From an uncultured Burkholderia sp. (GTDB lineage Bacteria; Pseudomonadota; Gammaproteobacteria; Burkholderiales; Burkholderiaceae), in the NCBI GenBank assembly GCA_964414365.1, contig CAYPWK010000005.1:1-38072 (forward strand): DNA of 38,072 nt, in the 5' to 3' direction. The notes below the pieces were generated by a model that made no database searches, was not told the DNA's origin, and saw only the letters and a list, made by a program, of their open reading frames with translations. Made by a program: the position numbers and the translations under genes. This document shows, in pieces, positions 5,488-33,593 of this stretch (position 1 is the stretch's first letter; each line of letters begins with the position of its first letter).

Positions 5488-7448
5488 CGCGCAGCCGGTG
5501 CGGCATCCGAGCCACAATCGTCGGTGGTGACGGGCGCTGCACGCCGACCGAGCCCTTTCTTCAGATGAACCATCAGCAGCGAGATCGTCGCGGGGGTGAT
5601 CCCCGAGATCCGCGACGCTTGGCCAATCGTCTCAGGCCGGAATTGATTGAGCTTTTGACGCGCTTCGAACGATAGCCCTCGAACTGCCATGTAATCGATG
5701 CCTTCCGGCAGACGCGTGTTCTCGTTGGCCTCGTTGCGCTCGATCTCGTCGGCCTGACGTTCGATGTACCCCTGATACTTGACGCCGATCTCGATCTGCT
5801 CCTTGATCTGCGCGAGCAGAACGGGATCGTCTGCCAGCGGCTCGTCCGGCCCGCACTCGCCACCGCGAAGCCCGCAAATACCGTCATACGTTACGCCGGG
5901 GCGCCGCAGCAGGTCTGCGAGGCTGTATTCGTGGTCAATCGGCTTGCCGAGCAGCGCAGTCGCCTCGTCGGCGGCAAGCGTCTTAGGATTGACCCACGTC
6001 GCGCGGAGCCGCTCTGTTTCACGTGAAACAGCATCGCGCTTGCGGCAAAACGCATCCCAGCGGGCGTCATCGACGACCCCAAGCTCTCGCCCAACTTCGG
6101 TCAGCCGCATGTCCGCGTTGTCCTCTCGAAGGCTGAGCCGGTACTCGGCGCGGCTCGTGAACATCCGATACGGCTCAGAGACGCCGCGCGTCACGAGGTC
6201 GTCGACGAGAACCCCGAGGTACGCCTGATCGCGCCGCGGCGACCACGGCGCCTTGTCGAGCACGTAGCAACCCGCGTTGATGCCGGCGAGGAGCCCTTGC
6301 GCGGCAGCCTCTTCATAGCCCGTGGTGCCGTTGATCTGCCCCGCAAAAAAGAGGCCCTGGATCGCCTTCGTCTCGAGCGACGCCTTCAGCGCGCGCGGAT
6401 CGAAATAGTCGTATTCGATCGCATAGCCGGGGCGCAAGATGTGCGCGTTTTCGAGTCCACGCATCGAGTGCACGAGTTCCAACTGCACGTCGAAAGGCAG
6501 ACTGGTGGAAATCCCATTCGGGTAGAACTCGTTCGTCGTCAGCCCTTCGGGTTCAAGGAAGATCTGATGCGACGTCTTCGATGCAAACCGATGAATTTTG
6601 TCTTCGATCGACGGGCAATAGCGCGGCCCCACTCCCTCGATGACGCCGGTATACATCGGTGACCGATCGAGCCCGCCGCGAATGATATCGTGCGTCCTCT
6701 CATTGGTATGCGTCACCCAGCACGGCAACTGCTGCGGGTGCTGCTCTACGCGACCGAGAAACGAAAAGACCGGGATCGGATCAAGATCGCCGGGTTGCTC
6801 TTCGAGCATCGAGAAATCGATCGAGCGCCCGTCGATACGCGGCGGTGTCCCCGTCTTTAGCCGTCCCTGCGGAAGCTTCAGCTCTTTCAGCCGAGCCGAA
6901 AGCGTCACGGCGGCCGGATCGCCTGCGCGGCCACCGGTGTAATTGTTGAGCCCGACGTGAATCTTGCCGTCGAGGAACGTGCCGGCCGTCAGAACGACAG
7001 CGCGCGAACTAAAGCGGATCCCGATCTGCGTCACGGCACCGACGACACGGTCCCCTTCGACGATCAAGTCCTCGACAGCCTGCTGGAACAGCCAGAGATT
7101 CGGCTGGTTTTCGAGCCGATGGCGAATCGCCTTCTTATAGAGGACTCGGTCGGCTTGCGCTCGCGTGGCGCGGACCGCAGGGCCCTTCGACGAATTGAGG
7201 ATGCGGAACTGAATGCCGGCCTCGTCCGTCGCGGCTGCCATCGCACCGCCCAGCGCGTCGACCTCCTTGACCAGATGGCCCTTGCCGATCCCCCCGATCG
7301 AGGGGTTGCAGCTCATTTGGCCGAGCGTTTCGATATTGTGCGTAAGCAGCAGGGTCTTTGCGCCCATGCGCGCGGACGCCAAAGCGGCTTCAGTGCCGGC
7401 GTGACCGCCGCCGACCACGATGACGTCGAATTCAGTGGGATAAAGCAT
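5484..7448 (-). CDS. mnmG: tRNA uridine-5-carboxymethylaminomethyl synthesis enzyme MnmG (GidA)
   Basis: [53 protein letters not shown]. Confidence 0.98.
6015..6030. promoter_or_regulatory. parS site (inside mnmG)
   Basis: TGTTTCACGTGAAACA, a perfect match to the canonical 16-bp chromosomal parS palindrome, about 2 kb from parB. Confidence 0.93.
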
Positions 7449-7821: not shown

Positions 7822-7837
7822 CGTTTCACGTGAAACA
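7822..7837. promoter_or_regulatory. parS site (intergenic)
   Basis: CGTTTCACGTGAAACA, 15/16 match to the canonical parS. Confidence 0.9.
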
Positions 7838-8788: not shown

Positions 8789-8797
8789 TGTGGATAA
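8789..8797. promoter_or_regulatory. Isolated consensus DnaA box
   Basis: TGTGGATAA (= TTATCCACA on the minus strand) in an intergenic gap. Confidence 0.5.
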
Positions 8798-24169: not shown

Positions 24170-25672
24170 ATGCACGACCCCGTTGCAATCAGTCTGCGCC
24201 GTTCGCTGCTGCGGCGCCTCGCGGGGCCGCTCTCGCTGCTCGCCTTGATGAGCGGCCTCATCGCCTACTGGCTCGCCTGGCAGTACACGCAGCATGTAAT
24301 CGACCGGTCGCTCGTGGATCTGGCGGCGGCCATGTCGAAGCAGATTCAGATCGCGGGACCGAATGCGCGCACTTCGGTGCCGCCGCTCGCACAAGCGATG
24401 TTCTCCGACCCGAAGCAGCACTTGATCTATCGGATCAACGATGGCGAGCGCGAACTCGCCGGCGACCCGGACCTTCCGCTATTCGGTAAGAGCGTGCGTC
24501 TGATGCACTACGCGTACGTTTTCGAGGCGCAGTATCGCAACATGACTGTGCGCGTCGCGCAAGTCCGTTTCACGCAGCCCAACGGCCGTCCGATGGTGGT
24601 CGAAGTGGCGCAACAGCTACGCCATCGATATCGGATCGCGGCCGAGTTCCTCGTCGCGATCATGATGCCGCTGCTGTTGCTGCTGTTAGCCGGTTGGGGG
24701 ATCGTCTGGAGCGTCGTCAATCAGCAGCTCGGCCCGCTGACGGCGCTTGCCGATTCGCTGAACCGGCAGACGCACATGTCGCTCGAGAAAGTCGACGAAA
24801 CACTCGTGCCGACCGAGATCCGTCCGCTCACGAGCGCATTGAACGCGCTGCTTGAACGACTGAAGGCAGCACTCGAGGCCCAGCGCAAGTTCATTGCGGA
24901 TGCCGCGCATCAGTTGCGCACACCATTGACGGCGGTGAAGCTGCACGCCGAACAGGCGGCCAGCGCGCGTGATCCGTACCAGACCCTCGCGGCCGTTCGC
25001 GAATTGCGCGCGGCGGCCGACCGGGCCGTCCGGCTCTCCAACCAGCTACTTTCACTCGCGCGAGCAGAACCGGGGGCACAGACGGCCCGTTTCGTCGACG
25101 TCGATATTGCCGCGCTCGCGTTCGAAACCGGCGCCGAATGGGTGCCGAGAGCGCTGGCCGCTCACGTCGATCTCGGCTTTCAGCGGCTCGACGATCCGAG
25201 CAATGACACGCCGCTCATCGTGCGCGGGAATCCGATCCTGTTGCGGGAAGTCGTCGGCAATCTGCTTGACAATGCGCTCAAGTATGCGCCTTCGGCTGGC
25301 CGCGACGGCGCGCGTGTGACGGTAACGGTCACGCGGATCGAGGCTGCCGATGGGGTACCGCTTGCGCAGATCGTCGTCGAAGACAACGGCGCGGGCGTCC
25401 CTATCGCATTGCAAGCCGATCTCTTCAAGCGGTTCTTCCGCGGCGACAGGAACGACTCGGAGGACGCCGGCGTCGATGCGGGTGCGGGCCTCGGCCTTGC
25501 CATCGTCCACGACATCATGAATTTGCATGGCGGCAAGGTGCAATATGCCGATGCGCCCGATGGCGGCGCTCAATTCATCCTACGCATTCCCCTTGCCGCA
25601 CAGGCGCAGGTACCGGCACCGACCGACGCAAAATGTCACGACGAAGCGACTTCGTCGCTTCGCGATAACTAG
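24170..25672 (+). CDS. Sensor histidine kinase (TctE/QseC-like)
   Basis: Two TM segments, HAMP, H-box DAAHQLRTPL, NLLDNALKY, DNGAG, GAGLGLAIV. Confidence 0.95.
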   Translation: MHDPVAISLRRSLLRRLAGPLSLLALMSGLIAYWLAWQYTQHVIDRSLVDLAAAMSKQIQIAGPNARTSVPPLAQAMFSDPKQHLIYRINDGERELAGDPDLPLFGKSVRLMHYAYVFEAQYRNMTVRVAQVRFTQPNGRPMVVEVAQQLRHRYRIAAEFLVAIMMPLLLLLLAGWGIVWSVVNQQLGPLTALADSLNRQTHMSLEKVDETLVPTEIRPLTSALNALLERLKAALEAQRKFIADAAHQLRTPLTAVKLHAEQAASARDPYQTLAAVRELRAAADRAVRLSNQLLSLARAEPGAQTARFVDVDIAALAFETGAEWVPRALAAHVDLGFQRLDDPSNDTPLIVRGNPILLREVVGNLLDNALKYAPSAGRDGARVTVTVTRIEAADGVPLAQIVVEDNGAGVPIALQADLFKRFFRGDRNDSEDAGVDAGAGLGLAIVHDIMNLHGGKVQYADAPDGGAQFILRIPLAAQAQVPAPTDAKCHDEATSSLRDN

Positions 25673-25689
25673 AAAAATAGAAGCCGACC

Positions 25690-26151
25690 TCAGGCCTTGC
25701 CGTTGCGCTTGGGCGCGAGCATCGTGCCTCGGCATTTACGCGCGCCACAGCGGCAGGCGTACTCTTCCTTGAGCTTCTTCGTGAGGCGCACGTCCACTAC
25801 GAGGCCGTAGTCGTAGAACAGTTCCTCGTCGGCGGCAATGTCGCGCAGCGCGCGAATGAACACGCGTCCCTCGATTTCCTCTGCCTCGCAATTCGGTGCG
25901 CATGAATGATTGATCCAGCGCGCGCTGTTGCCGCCCACGTTACCGTCGATGACGCGACCGTCCTCGAGGGCGAAATAGAACGTATGGTTCGGGTCGTCTG
26001 GATTGTGCGGATGCCGGCGCTGGGCCTCTTTCCATGAAATCCGCTCACCCTTGTATTCCATCAGCCGCTCGCCCGCGCTGAGCGGTGCGGCGGCAAACAC
26101 GCCCTTGCCATGCACACCCGAACGGCGCACGACCAACTTGCGTGAACTCAT
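25690..26151 (-). CDS. SET-domain protein lysine methyltransferase with post-SET Cys motif
   Basis: GKGVFA, RWINHSCAPN, EELFYDY, CRCGARKC. Confidence 0.93.
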   Translation of the reverse strand: MSSRKLVVRRSGVHGKGVFAAAPLSAGERLMEYKGERISWKEAQRRHPHNPDDPNHTFYFALEDGRVIDGNVGGNSARWINHSCAPNCEAEEIEGRVFIRALRDIAADEELFYDYGLVVDVRLTKKLKEEYACRCGARKCRGTMLAPKRNGKA

Positions 26152-26234
26152 TGACGAATCCTCTGAAAACCAACAATGCCGCTACCGCGCGGCGCACGTC
26201 GCCGCACATGAGAGCGCTTTCGATCACGGGATAG

Positions 26235-26262
26235 AAAACGCGGCGCCCATAGGGCGCCGCGT
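26235..26262 (-). terminator. Intrinsic terminator downstream of the MarR gene
   Basis: Minus strand ACGCGGCGCCC-TAT-GGGCGCCGCGT followed by TTTCTAT. Confidence 0.6.
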
Positions 26263-26443
26263 CGGCACATGACGTCATGTACGTCACAAAGCGTGATCGT
26301 ACACGCTGACGATATCTTCGTTCAACGTCGCACGGCAGAATATGAAAAAAAGCGTGCAGCGGGCTGCTGAAAGCCGGTTAAGTCGACCACGGGCGACGAC
26401 AAGCGCGGTCGTTGAAAGCAAGCACGCTTCGCTTAGAGGGGAT

Positions 26444-27085
26444 TCAGCCCTGCGCGAAGATCTTCCAGATCCGCTTCTGGGCCATCGAGTCGGCTTCCTC
26501 ATGCACGTCGCAGTCAAGGCGAAGCTCGACATCGCCCAACGAGGCGCCGAGCGCCAGGCACCGATGCGGCGCCTTTTTGACGTTCTTGCTCGGTTCGAAA
26601 TGGCGGCACGTCATGCACATTCTGTGCGGCGGAATGTCGCCCTGCACCTGCAACTGGCGAATCATCTTCAGGAGCGTTCGATAGAAGACGGCCTGCTCGT
26701 CGCCGCCAAGCGTGTCGATCGCCGCGCTGAGAAAGTCGGGCCACTGGAGCGCCCGCTTGGCTGCCGTACGACCCTTCCCCGTCAAACGAACGGCAAGCGC
26801 GCGCCCGTCCTCGTGCGCGCGACGCTTTTCGATAAGGCCTTTCGCTTCGAGCGTGCTGACGGCGTCGCTCGTCGTTGCGGCCGTGAGTGCCGTCTCGCGC
26901 GCAATCTCCCCGAGCCGCAAGGGCGTCTTGCGCTGCATAAGCAAAACGAGAATCTCCCCTTGCGTCGGTGTCAACCCGGCGCTTTCGGCCCATTCCCACG
27001 CCTGGCTGCGCATCGCCGTGTTCAGCCGCAGCAAGCTATGGGTCACACGCCCCGTCGCTTGCTCTCCGTATGCACCTTCGCTCAT
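26444..27085 (-). CDS. MarR-family winged-helix regulator with a Cys-rich C-terminal extension
   Basis: GLTPTQGEIL, TSDAVSTLEAKGLI, DGR wing; C-terminal CMTCRHF...HRC...LDC. Confidence 0.9.
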   Translation of the reverse strand: MSEGAYGEQATGRVTHSLLRLNTAMRSQAWEWAESAGLTPTQGEILVLLMQRKTPLRLGEIARETALTAATTSDAVSTLEAKGLIEKRRAHEDGRALAVRLTGKGRTAAKRALQWPDFLSAAIDTLGGDEQAVFYRTLLKMIRQLQVQGDIPPHRMCMTCRHFEPSKNVKKAPHRCLALGASLGDVELRLDCDVHEEADSMAQKRIWKIFAQG

Positions 27086-27389
27086 GGTCTTTCTTCGCTA
27101 TTTCGCCATTGACAGCATCCGCTGCTGATCCGGTCGCCAGTGTGCGCCTACCGCGCGACGCGCCGCAAGCTCCGCTGGACGACTCGCCCTCTCGAGCCTA
27201 TCGAATTTTACTATTCCAGAGTCTTTCGCTTGGCCCGACAAAAATATCAAGCATCGGGACAGGATGGCGCTCGCACGGCAGTACCCTCGCAAGCCATGCA
27301 CGGCGTTCGCGCTAAAACCGTTGGAAGCGACGAGTTCGCCATTTTAAGCGAGACAAGCCGCCTGTCGAGCCCACTTATTCTCGAAATTG

Positions 27390-27615
27390 TGTGGATAACT
27401 TTTGTATAACCGCGTGAATCTTCTGTGACGGAATGTTCGTAACCCGTCCGTCCCAAAAAATGCGGCTCAGGTTATGCGCTACACCTTCGCCCGACGCACG
27501 CGCGATCCACGCGGTTATCGTTTTCCCAACCCATTGAAGCGTCGGCAAGTTTTGCGGTTTTCCACAGCGGCGGCGGTCGCTTGTTAACTATTACTACTTT
27601 TGTATACGTATTAAC
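27390..27615. other. oriC-like module A (DnaA boxes, IHF-like site, DnaA-trio/AT-rich element)
   Basis: TGTGGATAA 27390-27398, TTTGTATAA 27401-27409, IHF-like site 27527-27539, TTTTCCACA 27558-27566, GC-rich spacer, then TTGTTAACTATTACTACTTTTGTATACGTATTAA. Confidence 0.75.
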
Positions 27616-27625
27616 GAAGACAAAC

Positions 27626-28744
27626 CTAGAAACTGCGCCAGCGCACACACTGTTGCCGTACCGCTTCGTGGAGCGATTTTTCTTTGGCCACGACGCTGCG
27701 CAGCCACGTCGCATCGTTCATTTGTTCTCGCGCGATAACGGCGATCTGCTCGAGCGCGGCACCCGAGTGAAGGGCCCGAGCATGGGGCGCGATGGTTTCC
27801 AGTGTTTCGAGGATGTCTTCGAAGATCGTGCGGCGAGCGCCGGTTTGCGGATTGATGCAGGTTCCGCCAAGACCGAAACGACACGCTTCGAAGCGGTTGA
27901 ACGTGTAGACGAGGTAGTCGTCCTCTCTCGGCATGAACGGCTTATCGACGAGCAAATGCCTCGCGAGCGTCTGGATGTAGCACGCGATCGCCGCGGCGCG
28001 GTCGATCGATAGCGGCGTATCCATGACGCGTACCTCGATCGTGCCGTAACCGGGCTTCGGCCGAATATCCCAGTAGAAGTCCTTCATGCTGTTGACGACG
28101 CCTGTCGCGACCATCTTCGAAAAGTACTCCTCGAAGCCGTCCCAGGTCAGCACGAACGGTGCGCGACCCGAAAGCGGGAATGCGAACACCGAGTTGAGAC
28201 GCGCCGAGTGGAACCCCGTATCGACGCCCTGCACGTAAGGTGAGGACGCCGAGAGCGCGATGAAGTGCGGAATGAACCGCGACATGGCGTGTAGCAGAAA
28301 GAGCGCGCTGTTCGCGTCGGGGCAGCCGATATGGACGTGTTGGCCAAATACCGTGAACTGCTTTGCCAGATAGCCGTAGAGCTCGGAAAGGTACTGAAAG
28401 CGCGGCGCGTCGAAGATTTGCCGCTCCGTCCAGTGCTGGAACGCATGTGTACCGCCGCCGCAAAGACCCACGTTGAGTTGATCCGCCGCGGCGACAAGCG
28501 TGTCGCGAATCGTGCGCAACTGCGAGAGCGCTTCTTCGTGCGACGTGCAAACGCCCGTGGAAAGCTCGATCATGCTTTCGGTGATCTCGGGCGTGATGTT
28601 TCCCGGAATCTTCTGGTCCTTGACGAGACGCATCAAATCGGATGCCGCTTTCGTCAGATCGTAGTCGTGCTTGTTGACGACTTGGATCTCTAGCTCGACA
28701 CCGAACGTGAACGGTTTGGAATCGACGAAGGGTTCAAGTGCCAT
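27626..28744 (-). CDS. YbdK-family carboxylate-amine ligase (glutamate--cysteine ligase 2)
   Basis: [37 protein letters not shown]. Confidence 0.93.
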
Positions 28745-28835
28745 GTTGGTGTCCTATGGTGAAACGGCCCTGCGCGCACTGAAGCGGTCCACGCGTCGGC
28801 GAAAAAAGTTTGGAATTCTGGAACGGGTGCTCATG

Positions 28836-30038
28836 TCACTCGCGGCGCTCACCAACGAGCGTCAGGCTGCGATAGACGATCCAGGGCCCGACGAGCTGCA
28901 AGACGACGATAGCGCTGAGCGCAACCGCCCGCAGCGTCGGATCGAACTGCGGGTAGAGCAGATAGGTGTCATCGACGAGCAGGTAAGCAAGCGCCGACAT
29001 AGGCGCAAGCGACAAGCCCAGCGCAACGCCCTGCTTCCAGTCGAGCCCGCTCGGCTTCGCGAACGCGAGCACGCCAACGAGCTTGGCCACGAAGCGCGCC
29101 ACGATGAGGCCGATCGCCGCGACGCCACCGATCGCGAGATCCTTCCATTGGAACGACGTAAGCGTAAGCACGAACAAAATGACGGTCAGCAGCCAGCCCG
29201 CCGTGCCGAAGTGCTGCGGCCATAGCTGCGGCTTTTCCTCGAAGTTCTTCACGATGATCCCGGCGGCAAGGAGGCTCAGGATGGTCGAGACCTTGAAGAT
29301 GTTCGCGATGGCGATGGCAAGCAGCACGAGCCCGAACAGCGCGACGAAAGAATGCTCGTCTTGCATGTTGACGCGCCGGTAGAGCAACATGCACGCGCGC
29401 GCAAGCAGGTAAGCGACGACGAGCGAGCCCGCGATGAGATAGAGCGGCTGAACGATCGTAGCGAAGACATTGCCGTAGACCTCCTGATGAAGCCAGGCCG
29501 AAACGATCTTCTCGACGACGACGGCATACATGCTGTTGAGCGCGGTCAGCGTGAGAAGACGCTGCGTCACCTGCCCTTCCGCACGTAATTCCGTCTTGAG
29601 CTGAATCACCATCGCCGGCGAAGTCGACATCGAAATGGCCGCCAACACCGTCGCAACGGTTGGCGATACTTTCGCAAACAGCAAGACCACGAGCACAAGC
29701 ACGAACGTCAGCGTGGCTTCGGCGAGGCTCGAGAGGATCAGCCAAGGATTGCGGCGGACCCAGCGCAAATCGAGCCGGCTACCGAGCTCGAACAGCAACA
29801 ATCCCAGCCCGACGTCTAGGAGAAGTCGCGACGTTTCGATCATGTCGGCATCGATCGCACCGAAGCCGGCCGAGCCGGCGATGAGACCGATGACAGCATA
29901 CCCGGACACGCGAGGCAGGCGCCATGCCCGGTAGCAGAGCTCCCCGCAAAGACCCGCGACAAACAAGGCGAGTCCCGCCCAGAAAATACCGCTCAGCGGG
30001 AACGGCCAACTCGGCAGAAACGAAAACGCCGATGTCAT
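28836..30038 (-). CDS. Cation:proton antiporter (CPA2 / Na+/H+ exchanger family)
   Basis: Multi-TM protein, GLLLFELG, STSPA. AAGGAG RBS before MTSAFSF. Confidence 0.88.
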   Translation of the reverse strand: MTSAFSFLPSWPFPLSGIFWAGLALFVAGLCGELCYRAWRLPRVSGYAVIGLIAGSAGFGAIDADMIETSRLLLDVGLGLLLFELGSRLDLRWVRRNPWLILSSLAEATLTFVLVLVVLLFAKVSPTVATVLAAISMSTSPAMVIQLKTELRAEGQVTQRLLTLTALNSMYAVVVEKIVSAWLHQEVYGNVFATIVQPLYLIAGSLVVAYLLARACMLLYRRVNMQDEHSFVALFGLVLLAIAIANIFKVSTILSLLAAGIIVKNFEEKPQLWPQHFGTAGWLLTVILFVLTLTSFQWKDLAIGGVAAIGLIVARFVAKLVGVLAFAKPSGLDWKQGVALGLSLAPMSALAYLLVDDTYLLYPQFDPTLRAVALSAIVVLQLVGPWIVYRSLTLVGERRE

Positions 30039-30300
30039 GAATAGCTTCTCCTTACGGACAAGCCGCTTTCGAACATCTGGGAAGCGGCCGATGTGCGTGT
30101 TCGCCCGATCGGGCGTGAAGCCGTCGGACGCAAATGGCGGCAACCGGCGAACCGGCCCGCGGGCCGCAAAGGAGTCACCAGGGCCCGGCGAGACCCGCTC
30201 GACTGCGACGGGCCAGCCTACGACGAATTGCCGGCAGCGAGTGCGCGATGAACGGCGCTCACACTGCCCGGCGCGATGAATGGGAACGGACGTAGCCGCT

Positions 30301-30387
30301 CAGGTCTGGGATTCCGAACTGGCTTTCGCCGTTCCACCAGTACCGGCCGTGTTTCGGGGTACCGACGTGCAAACACCTGCAGGAAGA
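30301..30387 (-). ncRNA. Candidate structured leader RNA or sRNA upstream of the antiporter
   Basis: Extended -10-like TGGCACAAT at 30394-30402 (minus), followed by helices that could form a multi-way junction, including a GGC-GAAA-GCC tetraloop hairpin. Family not recognised. Confidence 0.35.
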
Positions 30388-30612
30388 ACGCGGATTGTGC
30401 CATAACCTGCACGTTCTCGAGCTATTCGTCACCGTTATTCAGGCATTTCGGTACAAATGACGCAAAACCAGTCGCAAGCTGGAAAAATCATCCGATTTCT
30501 AGGCCTCGGGGCTGTCCGCATCCGACGCCTGTCAGCGCCAGTCCGCCAGCACCGGATGCCGTGTTCGGGAAAGCCCGTACCACTTAGCTGGGCCGATGGC
30601 TAGCGAGGACCG

Positions 30613-30875
30613 GGTTTACAGGTTTACGTATGTATACACGTAGTAGCAGTTAACAAACCGCGCCATTTTCTGTGCATAACGCCCATTTTTCGCTTTGAAT
30701 CAAGCAGTTGGAGAACGCATAACCGTTTGCGCACGATGTGCGGGACGGTCCGGTTTCGCGGAACAACTTTTTCGCGTCCTTCGCCTGCCAGCAGGTTGTC
30801 CCGTTTACGTCCACATCGAGTTCACAGCGATTTCAGCGGCTCTTCAGGCACTTACCCACAAGCAGCGGTGGACAA
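30613..30875. other. oriC-like module B (mirror image of module A)
   Basis: GTATACACGTAGTAGCAGTTAACAA, DnaA box TGTGCATAA 30671-30679, perfect IHF consensus AATCAAGCAGTTG 30698-30710, opposite-orientation box TTACCCACA 30852-30860. Confidence 0.75.
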
Positions 30876-30878
30876 GTC

Positions 30879-32861
30879 TCACGCGGACGAGTCCGCCAGA
30901 CCGTGCCGCAACGCACGCAGCAGATAACGCGCCGGGTCGAGCGATTCGGCGAGGTCGCGTTCGAGCGGCCACGGCTCTCCCTCGATTTGAGAAGCGATGA
31001 GCTCCCCGGCGAGCGCCGCCCAGACGAGTCCGCGCGAACCGAACGCGAAAGCGCCGTAGAGTCCGTCCGCCCGCGGCAAATCGAGCGGCCACGCGCCGCG
31101 CAGGCCGGCGGCTTCGCGCTCGCCGGCTTTTTCGTCGGCGAGTTGCCCCGCCATCGGCAGGCGATCGCTCGTGACACAGCGAAAGCCGACTCGGCCGGCG
31201 AGCGTTGCCGGATCGATCGCGCTCAACGCCGATGCCCACGCCGGAATCAATTTCGAAAGCCGCATGAGGTTTTCGGCATGGCCCGACTCTCGAATCGCCT
31301 TCTCTTCATCGTCGGCTTCGTAGGTGGCGCCCGTCAGCAAGCCGTCGGCCAGCGGCACCGCATAGCCGTCACCGATCACCGGTACCGCCAAGCCGGTCGC
31401 CAAGTGTGGGGGGAGCTGCGTCAATTGGCCGCGGACGATGCGCGTCGGCGCGTGGCGCAAGCGCGCGAGACGAACCGCGTCGCGCGCGTTCGCCAGGATG
31501 ACGACGGGAGCCCGCGCTACAACGTTGCCAAGCTCGTCGAAGACGGCCCAGCCTTGGCCATCGCGCTCGATGCGCGCTGCTTGCACGCCGCCGCGCCACG
31601 TCAGCGCATGCCCCGCGGCCGAGCACAGCGCGGCCACTAGCGCGGCCGGGTTAAGAGAGCCGCCCTGGGGATAAAAACAGCCGCTACCAGATAGACCTGT
31701 CAGCGCCGTTCCTGCGAGGTGTCGTGCCTCGGCCGCCGACAGGATCCGTGCGAACTCGCCGGGGTAGGCGAACGTCTCAACGGCTTCGGCGAGCGTCTGT
31801 GCTTCGCCCTCGTTGGCAGGCAAATGAAGCAGGCCGTTCAAAGTGCGTTCGAATCGATGGCCGGCGTCTTCGAGTATTCGCCAGCGACTGATCGCATAGA
31901 GGAAACCCGCGCGAGAGATTCGGGAAGCGACGCTGTCGTCGCGCGAGAGCAGCGGATGGAAGACGCCGGCGCGGTTGCCCGACGTCTCGTGCGCGACATG
32001 TGCGTGCCGTTCGATCAGCGTCACGCGCCAGCCGCGCGAGGCGAGCCGCTCGGTCGCCGCACAGCCGGCGAGACCGGCGCCGATGACGACGGCGTGTCGC
32101 TCCCCGCATTCGATCGGCATGGGCGGCTCGTGACGGCGCACGCGCCAGCGCGGCGCGAATGTGCCGACGAGCATCTCGCGTTTGCCGGCAAAACCCTGTG
32201 CTTTGGTGCATGCGAAGCCAGCCGCTTCCAGCCCGCGCCTGACATGACCGGCGCTCGTGTAAGTCGCGAGTGTGGCGTCCGTGCCGGCGAGCCGCGCGAG
32301 CGCCTTGAAGACGGGCGGCGACCAAAGGTCGGGATTCTTTGCCGGCGAGAAGCCGTCGAGATAGAAGGCGTCGGCACGCAGCCAAAGCTTCGGCAGCAGC
32401 TCGAGGGCATCGCCGAAAGCGATCGTCAAGGTGACGCGCCCTCCTTCGAACTCAAGGCGGTGAAGGCCGGAAAGCGGCAACGGCCAGGCGTCGGCGAGCT
32501 CGCGGGCGAGCCGCGAGATGGTTGCATCTGCAACGATGTGCGAGTGAAGCGCGCGCAGATCGTTAGCCGCGAACGGGTGTTTCTCGATCGAGACAAAAGC
32601 AAGACGTTCCGACCGTGCGGCATCGCTGCGCCAAGCCGCCCAGGTAGCGAGGAAATTGCCGCCAAGCCCGAAGCCCGTTTCGAGAATCGTGAAAAGACGC
32701 CTGCCGCGCCAGCGCGACGGCAGCCCGTTGCCGCCGACGAACACATGCTGCGCCTGCGCGAGCGCGCCGGCCGCGCTGTGATAGACGTCGTCATAGGTCG
32801 GCGAAAACGGCGTGCCGTCGTCGCGGAAGGCCAGCGTGGCAGGTTGCAGCGGAGCGGTCAT
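30879..32861 (-). CDS. mnmC: Bifunctional tRNA mnm5s2U34 methyltransferase / FAD oxidoreductase MnmC
   Basis: YDDVYHS, ETGFGLGGNFL, YLDGFSPAKNPDLW, VIGAGLAG, SGN. Start placed at MTAPLQPA. Confidence 0.96.
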   Translation of the reverse strand: MTAPLQPATLAFRDDGTPFSPTYDDVYHSAAGALAQAQHVFVGGNGLPSRWRGRRLFTILETGFGLGGNFLATWAAWRSDAARSERLAFVSIEKHPFAANDLRALHSHIVADATISRLARELADAWPLPLSGLHRLEFEGGRVTLTIAFGDALELLPKLWLRADAFYLDGFSPAKNPDLWSPPVFKALARLAGTDATLATYTSAGHVRRGLEAAGFACTKAQGFAGKREMLVGTFAPRWRVRRHEPPMPIECGERHAVVIGAGLAGCAATERLASRGWRVTLIERHAHVAHETSGNRAGVFHPLLSRDDSVASRISRAGFLYAISRWRILEDAGHRFERTLNGLLHLPANEGEAQTLAEAVETFAYPGEFARILSAAEARHLAGTALTGLSGSGCFYPQGGSLNPAALVAALCSAAGHALTWRGGVQAARIERDGQGWAVFDELGNVVARAPVVILANARDAVRLARLRHAPTRIVRGQLTQLPPHLATGLAVPVIGDGYAVPLADGLLTGATYEADDEEKAIRESGHAENLMRLSKLIPAWASALSAIDPATLAGRVGFRCVTSDRLPMAGQLADEKAGEREAAGLRGAWPLDLPRADGLYGAFAFGSRGLVWAALAGELIASQIEGEPWPLERDLAESLDPARYLLRALRHGLADSSA

Positions 32862-33314
32862 GAAAGCCGAAAAGTGAAAATCCATCGGTGCGCGGCGAGC
32901 GTCTTGGCCCGCTCGGGCATCACATCGCCGTGCCGCGGGCCAAAAACGCCGCGCCATGCGGGTTGCCGGGCGGCTCGAGGCCGCGAAAAACGGCCCTCGA
33001 GAACGTTGGCAAAATCCAACGTCGGCGCGCTGCAATTCCGCGAAACCCTTGGCAGGCGGGGTTTTCGAGTACGACAATGCGTCAAACCCAGCAGCGACAA
33101 GGTTAAGAAGCGTTAAATTCTTTGGAAGCCTTGCCGTTATTGGGTTTGCGCTGAGCTATCATAGCAAGCGCCGCACGACCGTTGCGCCGGGGCCCGGTGC
33201 CGCAGCCGGTGGCGCTCGCTTCGCCACAACAGCTACAGGACGGCACAGCTTGCGTACGATGATCGGCGCGGTCAGCGCCGTCAGTGTGACTTCAATCTGA
33301 AAAGAGGAACGTTA

Positions 33315-33593
33315 ATGAACAAACAGGAACTGATCGACGCCGTCGCAGGTCAGACGGGCGCCAGCAAGGCTCAGACTGGCGAAACGCTGGACACGCTGCT
33401 CGAAGTGATCAAGAAGGCGGTGTCCAAGGGGGACTCGGTTCAATTGATCGGCTTCGGCAGCTTCGGCTCGGGTAAGCGCGCAGCCCGCACGGGCCGCAAC
33501 CCGAAGACGGGCGAAACGATCAAGATCCCGGCCGCGAAGACGGTGAAGTTCACGGCAGGCAAGGCCTTCAAGGATGCCGTCAACAAGCGTTGA
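33315..33593 (+). CDS. HU-family DNA-binding protein
   Basis: [11 protein letters not shown]...VQLIGFGSF...[10 protein letters not shown]...[12 protein letters not shown]; GAGGA RBS. Confidence 0.97.

Follow-up and report, generated by a model that had tools for sequence, protein, structure and literature searches.

The textbook rule is that a bacterial chromosome has one origin of replication. Dual origins have been established in Pseudomonas aeruginosa, and bioRxiv 2025.08.05.668638, the main text of which does not mention Burkholderia, Ralstonia or Betaproteobacteria, predicts them for 88 of the 91 Pseudomonadaceae and 138 of the 163 Halomonadaceae that it covers. According to the available text of PMC13438810, oriCII of P. 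aeruginosa can replicate a plasmid, is dispensable, and regulates the gidA promoter. Here we examine a stretch of 38,072 nucleotides (hereafter the window) from an uncultured Burkholderia sp. (GCA_964414365.1, contig CAYPWK010000005.1), in which two origin-like modules, A (27370..27631, minus strand) and B (30612..30879, plus strand), lie about 3 kb apart in inverted orientation, with their unwinding ends facing each other, and enclose ybdK and an antiporter gene. Our reading, to which we assign a probability of about 0.6, is that A and B are old paralogous, complete oriC-type units at the skew switch of chromosome 1, B being the likely primary origin and A a likely initiation-competent second origin, whether redundant or conditional.

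An earlier description made from the letters alone (the sequence-only reading) had aligned the reverse complement of 27513-27607 (95 nt) with 30632-30724 (93 nt), and this alignment can be confirmed in the letters, as can the places of the boxes that it named and the spacer lengths of 14, 18 and 14 nt. In an alignment of 36 modules (where the A and B labels are swapped for genomes G014, G009 and G011, whose loci were taken in the other orientation) the common architecture extends beyond those first 95 nt and covers the whole ~260 bp. Each unit begins with an AT-rich element carrying GTWWAC motifs, continues with three TAG-type repeats, an invariant 8-mer, a GC-rich spacer and an R1-type DnaA box, and after R1 has an IHF-like site, several short conserved internal motifs and a distal box in the opposite orientation. 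The DnaA-trio-like repeats, the clusters of GTWWAC and CACAG methylation motifs and the family-wide multiplicity described below had not been part of that description.

In module A (model positions 3-267 of 271 in the profile match; all parts on the minus strand) the predicted unwinding element, as judged by duplex energy, occupies 27583..27632, with GTWWAC at 27583 and 27602. It contains the three trio-like repeats (27588..27596, trios as defined in PMC8287927), and after these come the 8-mer (27581-27588), the R1-type box (27558..27566, overlapping a CACAG motif), the IHF-like site (27527..27539) and the distal boxes (27390..27409), comprising a perfect R4-type box at 27390-27398 and a second box at 27401-27409. 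In module B (model positions 9-266; plus strand) the corresponding parts are the predicted unwinding element (30608..30657, GTWWAC at 30614, 30622, 30632 and 30649), the trio-like repeats (30641..30649) and 8-mer (30649-30656), the R1-type box (30671..30679, again overlapping CACAG), the IHF consensus site (30698..30710), conserved internal motifs that are likely low-affinity DnaA sites (30763..30815, with a fifth GTWWAC at 30803) and the distal R4-type box (30852..30860). Both R1 boxes match TTWTNCACA without mismatch and lie 21 bp from the trios. IHF-like sites had been claimed for both copies and both do sit at +27 from R1; measured against the IHF consensus, that of B has no mismatch and that of A has two, with its core conserved. 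The distal box had been placed about 180-190 nt from the first box, which holds for B (181 start to start, outer span 190) but not for A (168, outer span 177). In terms of duplex energy alone, with no supercoiling model, the A element is the least stable 50-bp duplex of the window and the B element falls within the lowest 0.13%. B is the sole place in the assembly with at least three GTWWAC motifs inside 60 bp.

The similarity of the two modules is beyond chance. With A as sole query, B is the one further match below E=1 in the 6.35-Mb assembly (E=0.0056; the next has 6.5). A profile made of 23 modules that come from other genera picks the same two places, B with E=5e-46 and A with 1e-33, followed by a match at 0.064. 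An assembly artefact can be dismissed: contigs of run X4, from a separate study, span A with no differences, and the X4 contig over B shows 7 differences and one gap across 3.2 kb.

When the modules are set against E. coli oriC (NC_000913.3, 3925744-3925975), positions are collinear: with R1 at 0, the IHF site is at +27 in E. coli, A and B alike, and the distal box is at +180 in E. coli, +181 in B and +168 in A. Together with the match of a modules-only profile to E. coli oriC (E=1.2e-4), this supports the E. coli-type layout proposed earlier. Among the matches listed in a pattern scan of the whole collection, comprising 132 loci, the core TCA of the IHF site is in place in 109, with a conserved C 21 bp after R1, and the distal distance is bimodal, being 167-172 in 59 loci and 179-181 in 63 (162 in two, none in eight). 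The two classes are about one helical turn apart, and A-type copies are about one turn shorter than E. coli oriC. Unlike the oriC of the dam clade, the modules have no GATC 13-mers (0-1 GATC per module, versus 14 in the E. coli stretch), and they differ from E. coli oriC also in their GTWWAC and CACAG motifs, in their explicit TAG trio repeats and in being present in at least two copies per chromosome. We did not find SeqA in the assembly, which is 89% complete. The genome has an IHF-alpha gene, as well as an adenine methyltransferase gene between trpB and trpA, which is where the text of bioRxiv 2020.03.09.983379 places the GTWWAC methyltransferase; GTWWAC and CACAG are described there and in the text of PMC7364216 as the two core methylated motifs of Burkholderia, and are reported at origins. 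Compared with the basal unwinding system (BUS), the modules have three TAG-type repeats on the expected strand and side, beside a GC-rich spacer and a DnaA box; unlike in the BUS, the trios lie 21 bp from R1 because the invariant 8-mer sits between spacer and trios, and a further two NAN triplets, at 14 bp, are shifted from the register by one base.

Of 80 named loci among the matches listed, those nearest in sequence are Trinickia records, and the genus is likely Trinickia. The loci of relatives were first picked by homology to ybdK rather than by motif, and at these loci both modules are present in 15 of 16 same-genus relatives, with B only in the remaining one. By profile, to which seven of the 33 genus genomes contributed modules, at least two matches are found in 33/33, in 29 as the inverted 3-kb pair and in three split over contigs; in the last (G005) A is decayed and the second copy, 40 kb away, is cut by a contig end. 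The locus in question (G005:C23, L002) belongs to a reduced, 3.8-Mb member of the genus, where A has decayed in place. Identity between A and B is 0.84-0.97 in motif columns and 0.35-0.41 in spacers, and when modules of the genus are compared within each type (16 of A, 17 of B), the trios, R1 and IHF core of A reach 0.93-0.97 versus 0.43-0.55 for its spacers, B behaving alike; since the anchor motif served to pick modules, its own value is partly there by construction. The A copies of three genera group together in a single clade with support of 97/90, and the duplication must thus be older than those genera. Selection on the architecture of both copies, and a duplication that is old rather than recent, had both been suggested from the letters; the predominance of motif over spacer conservation in relatives of the genus that keep both copies, and for A the clade of three genera, agree with these suggestions.

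Which of the two is the origin of chromosome 1 can be approached through genomes that have one copy. Layouts were compared in 34 near-complete genomes, three of which have no module match. In genus g28 each of the six genomes has a single module, which comes right after dnaA, and all six of genera g15 and g34 have one module on B's side of ybdK and in B's orientation. Genome G124 has its strong copy at the 3' side of ybdK and a weak one after dnaA, and in genomes of g16 and g35 two or three copies are found, to both sides of ybdK and 65-90 kb away from it. Within the 140 kb examined, the minimum of the GC skew, which the sequence-only reading had proposed to locate, falls within the pair in G093, a complete genome of the genus, and no more than about 10 kb from B in G125, G146, G066 and G081; G060 has just one minimum, near one of its two copies. 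Transcription around B also follows E. coli, where it runs away from oriC at the unwinding end and into it at the distal end: the antiporter gene (28836..30038, minus strand, Na+/H+ exchanger family, Pfam PF00999, start codon read from the sequence) reads away from the B unwinding element, and mnmC (30879..33077, minus strand, NCBIfam NF002480) is transcribed into B from its distal end. An unwinding-side gene that is transcribed away is the criterion for this gene context in the main text of bioRxiv 2025.08.05.668638. From these sequence comparisons, the pair region very likely represents the chromosome-1 origin in duplicate, and B is most likely the primary unit because of the single-copy genomes and its E. 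coli-like transcription context.

As for A, its competence as an origin is suggested by the conservation of its unwinding element and trios, and by replacement copies that recur where A decays. In G005, G066, G125, G044 and G081, A is decayed or truncated and another full or contig-cut copy lies 40-147 kb off; G066, G125 and G081 combine a full B, a truncated remnant at the position of A and a full copy 48-147 kb away. The dual-origin interpretation put forward earlier is supported. If E. coli and B. subtilis are a guide, each module would bind DnaA at R1 and at the distal box and would be bent by IHF at +27, and its AT-rich element would be opened at the trios by a DnaA filament. Whichever copy fired first would passively replicate the other, 3 kb away, and the cell would behave as one with a single origin. 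Transcription through the antiporter gene and ybdK (27626..28744, minus strand, carboxylate-amine ligase, above the cut-off of NCBIfam NF010040), which leaves the unwinding element of B and enters that of A, would favour B, and methylation at the GTWWAC and CACAG sites that stand in place of E. coli's GATC may tune timing. In G125, G146 and G066 the half of the interval that adjoins the second copy has lost its strand skew or shows the opposite sign; for three g27 genomes the skew of this half is 0.000, -0.013 and +0.023, versus about -0.035 on either side. In G081 the skew is flat between the copies. Erased skew is what dual firing would predict, but foreign or accessory DNA would explain it equally, and genes of these half-intervals have almost no orthologues in control stretches, so that we regard it only as a hint.

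Several points weigh against A and B both being origins, or against B leading. Origin function is predicted for both copies and firing of A is putative, and a complete layout does not prove chromosomal firing, as oriCII of P. aeruginosa works on a plasmid yet is dispensable (in the available text of PMC13438810). The flanking genes of A do not have the context seen at B, because the 3' end of ybdK abuts the A unwinding element; the IHF match of A is weaker than that of B; and A has decayed at its position by ybdK in several lineages. In both modules the trios begin past the limit of the search rule given in the text of PMC8287927, which asks for at least three NAN trios no farther than 16 bp from a DnaA box. 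The A unwinding element is predicted to be less stable than that of B, both in the window and in 10 of the 16 genomes compared; A would therefore be easier to melt, which fits poorly with a simple ranking of B as the stronger copy. In addition, GC skew cannot resolve two sites that are 3 kb from each other, and at a remote copy in G085, which lies ~810 kb away from the pair, the skew does not switch. Of the 49 small genomes of the family, 20 have no match at all. Related genomes are not independent, which makes the genome counts descriptive.

Beyond the genus, the profile finds a module in 100 of 121 genomes of the family. Those of at least 3.3 Mb have two to five matches in 68 of 72 cases, although some of these are truncated remnants and one miss was partly scored, versus two or more matches in just 3 of the 49 smaller genomes. 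Among the layouts are the inverted 3-kb pair, tandems with 0.4-0.5 kb between the two copies, and pairs separated by tens to hundreds of kb. An order-wide sample has matches in 64 of 141 genomes, and all four genomes of family f10 (G197, G027, G239 and G276) have two or three close copies. Close modules running in the same direction are seen in other families of Burkholderiales, in the f10 genomes and in G237, G269 and G164 (L267-L271 in part). Genera g38 and g39, which have small genomes, gave no profile match in 11 genomes, and their origins may have another layout.

Extra copies stand in varied gene contexts. Two of them (G123:C24, L026, and G081:C1:1017k, L025) are just downstream of glmS, a region that is a common integration site. 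Another is on an island that occupies the same chromosomal site, close to tRNA-Phe, in two genera; a 3.7-kb stretch of it, next to a large serine recombinase, has 97% identity between them, while flanking genes are mostly 68-82% identical; in sequence terms this is a recent horizontal transfer of an origin cassette, and the module may allow an excised island to replicate with host DnaA. The two loci are G125:C1:3269700-3273400 (L021, with RepB/ParB-like genes too) and G098:C48 (L036). Modules do not, however, generally ride such islands: only two of ten island loci have one, those two being near-identical, and the other eight showed no module within the stretches examined. Nor do the modules appear to be chromid or plasmid origins, since in near-complete genomes the largest contig has all matches, a fragmented genome of 1.2 Mb being the one exception. 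Neither module B nor the island copy had a blastn match in PLSDB, and no exact pattern match was found in viral contigs.

One may go further and suppose that large-genome Burkholderiaceae and other Burkholderiales are natively multi-origin, with two to five working oriC cassettes on chromosome 1 that have been duplicated, replaced and moved in the course of evolution, sometimes by serine-recombinase islands, and with constant selection for a second origin, firing or dormant. We put this forward tentatively, and the analogy with the mobile and dormant origins of haloarchaea that it invites is just as speculative.

A clearly less probable alternative to our preferred reading is that B alone fires in the chromosome, A being a DnaA/IHF site for regulation, by titration of DnaA or at the marR promoter, analogous to P. 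aeruginosa oriCII, which is the precedent for it (PMC13438810, in the text available). The distal box of A lies ~300 bp upstream of the start of the MarR-family gene (26444..27085, minus strand, Pfam PF12802), and Table 1 of PMC7364216 lists B. cenocepacia BCAL0003 (MarR) with methylated CACAG in its promoter region. Transcription of ybdK enters the A unwinding element, the remnants at A in G066, G125 and G044 keep the distal part and have lost the unwinding end, and the remote copy without a skew switch fits as well. Yet the trios and AT-rich element of A are as conserved as those of B, which a pure binding site would not need, and replacement copies occur in unrelated contexts (glmS, eut, sigma-factor genes, islands) rather than being bound to one promoter. 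The same conservation speaks against the decoy of datA or DARS type offered by the sequence-only reading. E. coli datA and DARS1/2 are extra-origin DnaA boxes with an IHF site, without unwinding element or trios; the modules share the boxes and the IHF site with them but have the other two parts as well, and A keeps both under selection as strong as that on B.

That A and B fire equally, or that A is dominant, seems improbable. A does have the least stable duplex of the window and a perfect distal box, raw skew minima of G093, G125, G146 and G066 lie to that side of B which faces ybdK, and the strong copy of G124 is only at the ybdK 3' side. However, single-copy genomes with ybdK keep the position of B (6/6), A is the copy that decays, skew at a 3-kb scale is confounded by gene strand, and the G124 copy groups weakly with B-type sequences. 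Still less probable is that A and B are halves of one bipartite looping origin, as in B. subtilis or H. pylori, although their inversion and near-constant 3-kb distance in 29/33 genus genomes would suit it. In those organisms there is one unwinding element, the second part is just DnaA boxes and dnaA lies between, whereas here both copies have an unwinding element and trios, and ybdK and the antiporter gene are between them. The bipartite origin suggested earlier is thus not supported: neither copy lacks a part, small genomes manage with a single one, the two may be as close as ~0.4 kb (tandem, g20 and g31) or hundreds of kb apart, and BCAL0001-0003, if these tags correspond to the genes here as we infer, are outside the B. 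cenocepacia candidate essential list in the supplement of PMC4993015. Finally, it is hardly credible that an old duplication left A behind as a relic without function, since, despite its loss from the ybdK-side position in some lineages, motifs are conserved over spacers across three genera and at least two modules are present in 33/33 genus genomes.

The wider neighbourhood of the pair includes gidA, rsmG and parA, together with parS-like sites, 20-24 kb away (gidA at 20 kb). The parS-like palindromes are at window positions 6015-6030 and 7823-7836, in and upstream of gidA. No module match was found upstream of gidA within the window, and the single dnaA of the genome is on a contig other than that of the pair. 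A lone perfect DnaA box is present at 8789-8797, and 570 bp between B and the antiporter start (30039-30610) are free of genes. A SET-domain gene (25690-26151) and an HU gene (33312-33590) flank the origin region; genes of the same two kinds flank the G060 module (L274), with different genes between. Rfam gave no match of weight in 25500-31500 (one chance match, E=0.23), and a promoter and terminator scan of the region remained at chance level.

For the family itself, Du et al. 2016 (PMC4948915), at least in its text, did not clearly locate the chromosome 1 origin of B. cenocepacia J2315, its marker-frequency data being in 10 kb bins, and noted a second cluster of DnaA boxes. Its origin region resembles that of the pair, being near nucleotide 1 and the skew minimum and having two box clusters, with CACAG at DnaA boxes and GTWWAC between boxes, both reported as methylated (text of PMC7364216); the clusters are not described, in the text of PMC4948915, as two complete homologous origin units. 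In the parts available, the C. metallidurans genome paper reports two box clusters 130 kb apart (PMC2864759), Gao 2015 gives R. pickettii 12D putative double origins by box counts (PMC4403523), and PMC13643167 makes no mention of the Burkholderiaceae group. Our literature search, whose scope excluded DoriC, subscription journals and bioRxiv supplements, found no account of homologous complete origin copies in Burkholderiaceae. The modules provide candidates, exact to the base, for the origin of chromosome 1 in a large and much-studied family whose published origin map is uncertain, an uncertainty that more than one origin-like unit would explain. Since pairs occur naturally at distances of 0.4 kb, 3 kb, 45-60 kb and 130-150 kb, the old question of more than one DnaA origin per bacterial chromosome becomes directly testable, and GTWWAC methylation is a possible SeqA-independent origin timer.

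Of the systems described so far, it is the dual oriC of Pseudomonas and Halomonas that the pair resembles, as far as layouts can be compared: in both there are two complete layouts a few kb apart, which are old paralogues and one of which has been repeatedly downgraded. The pair differs from it in position, since the Pseudomonas and Halomonas origins are at rpmH-dnaA and upstream of mnmG, whereas the pair is next to neither dnaA nor mnmG. It differs from Pseudomonas also in geometry, being inverted with unwinding ends facing, in copy number, which reaches three to five, and in mobility, as positions shift between genera and one copy is on a mobile island.

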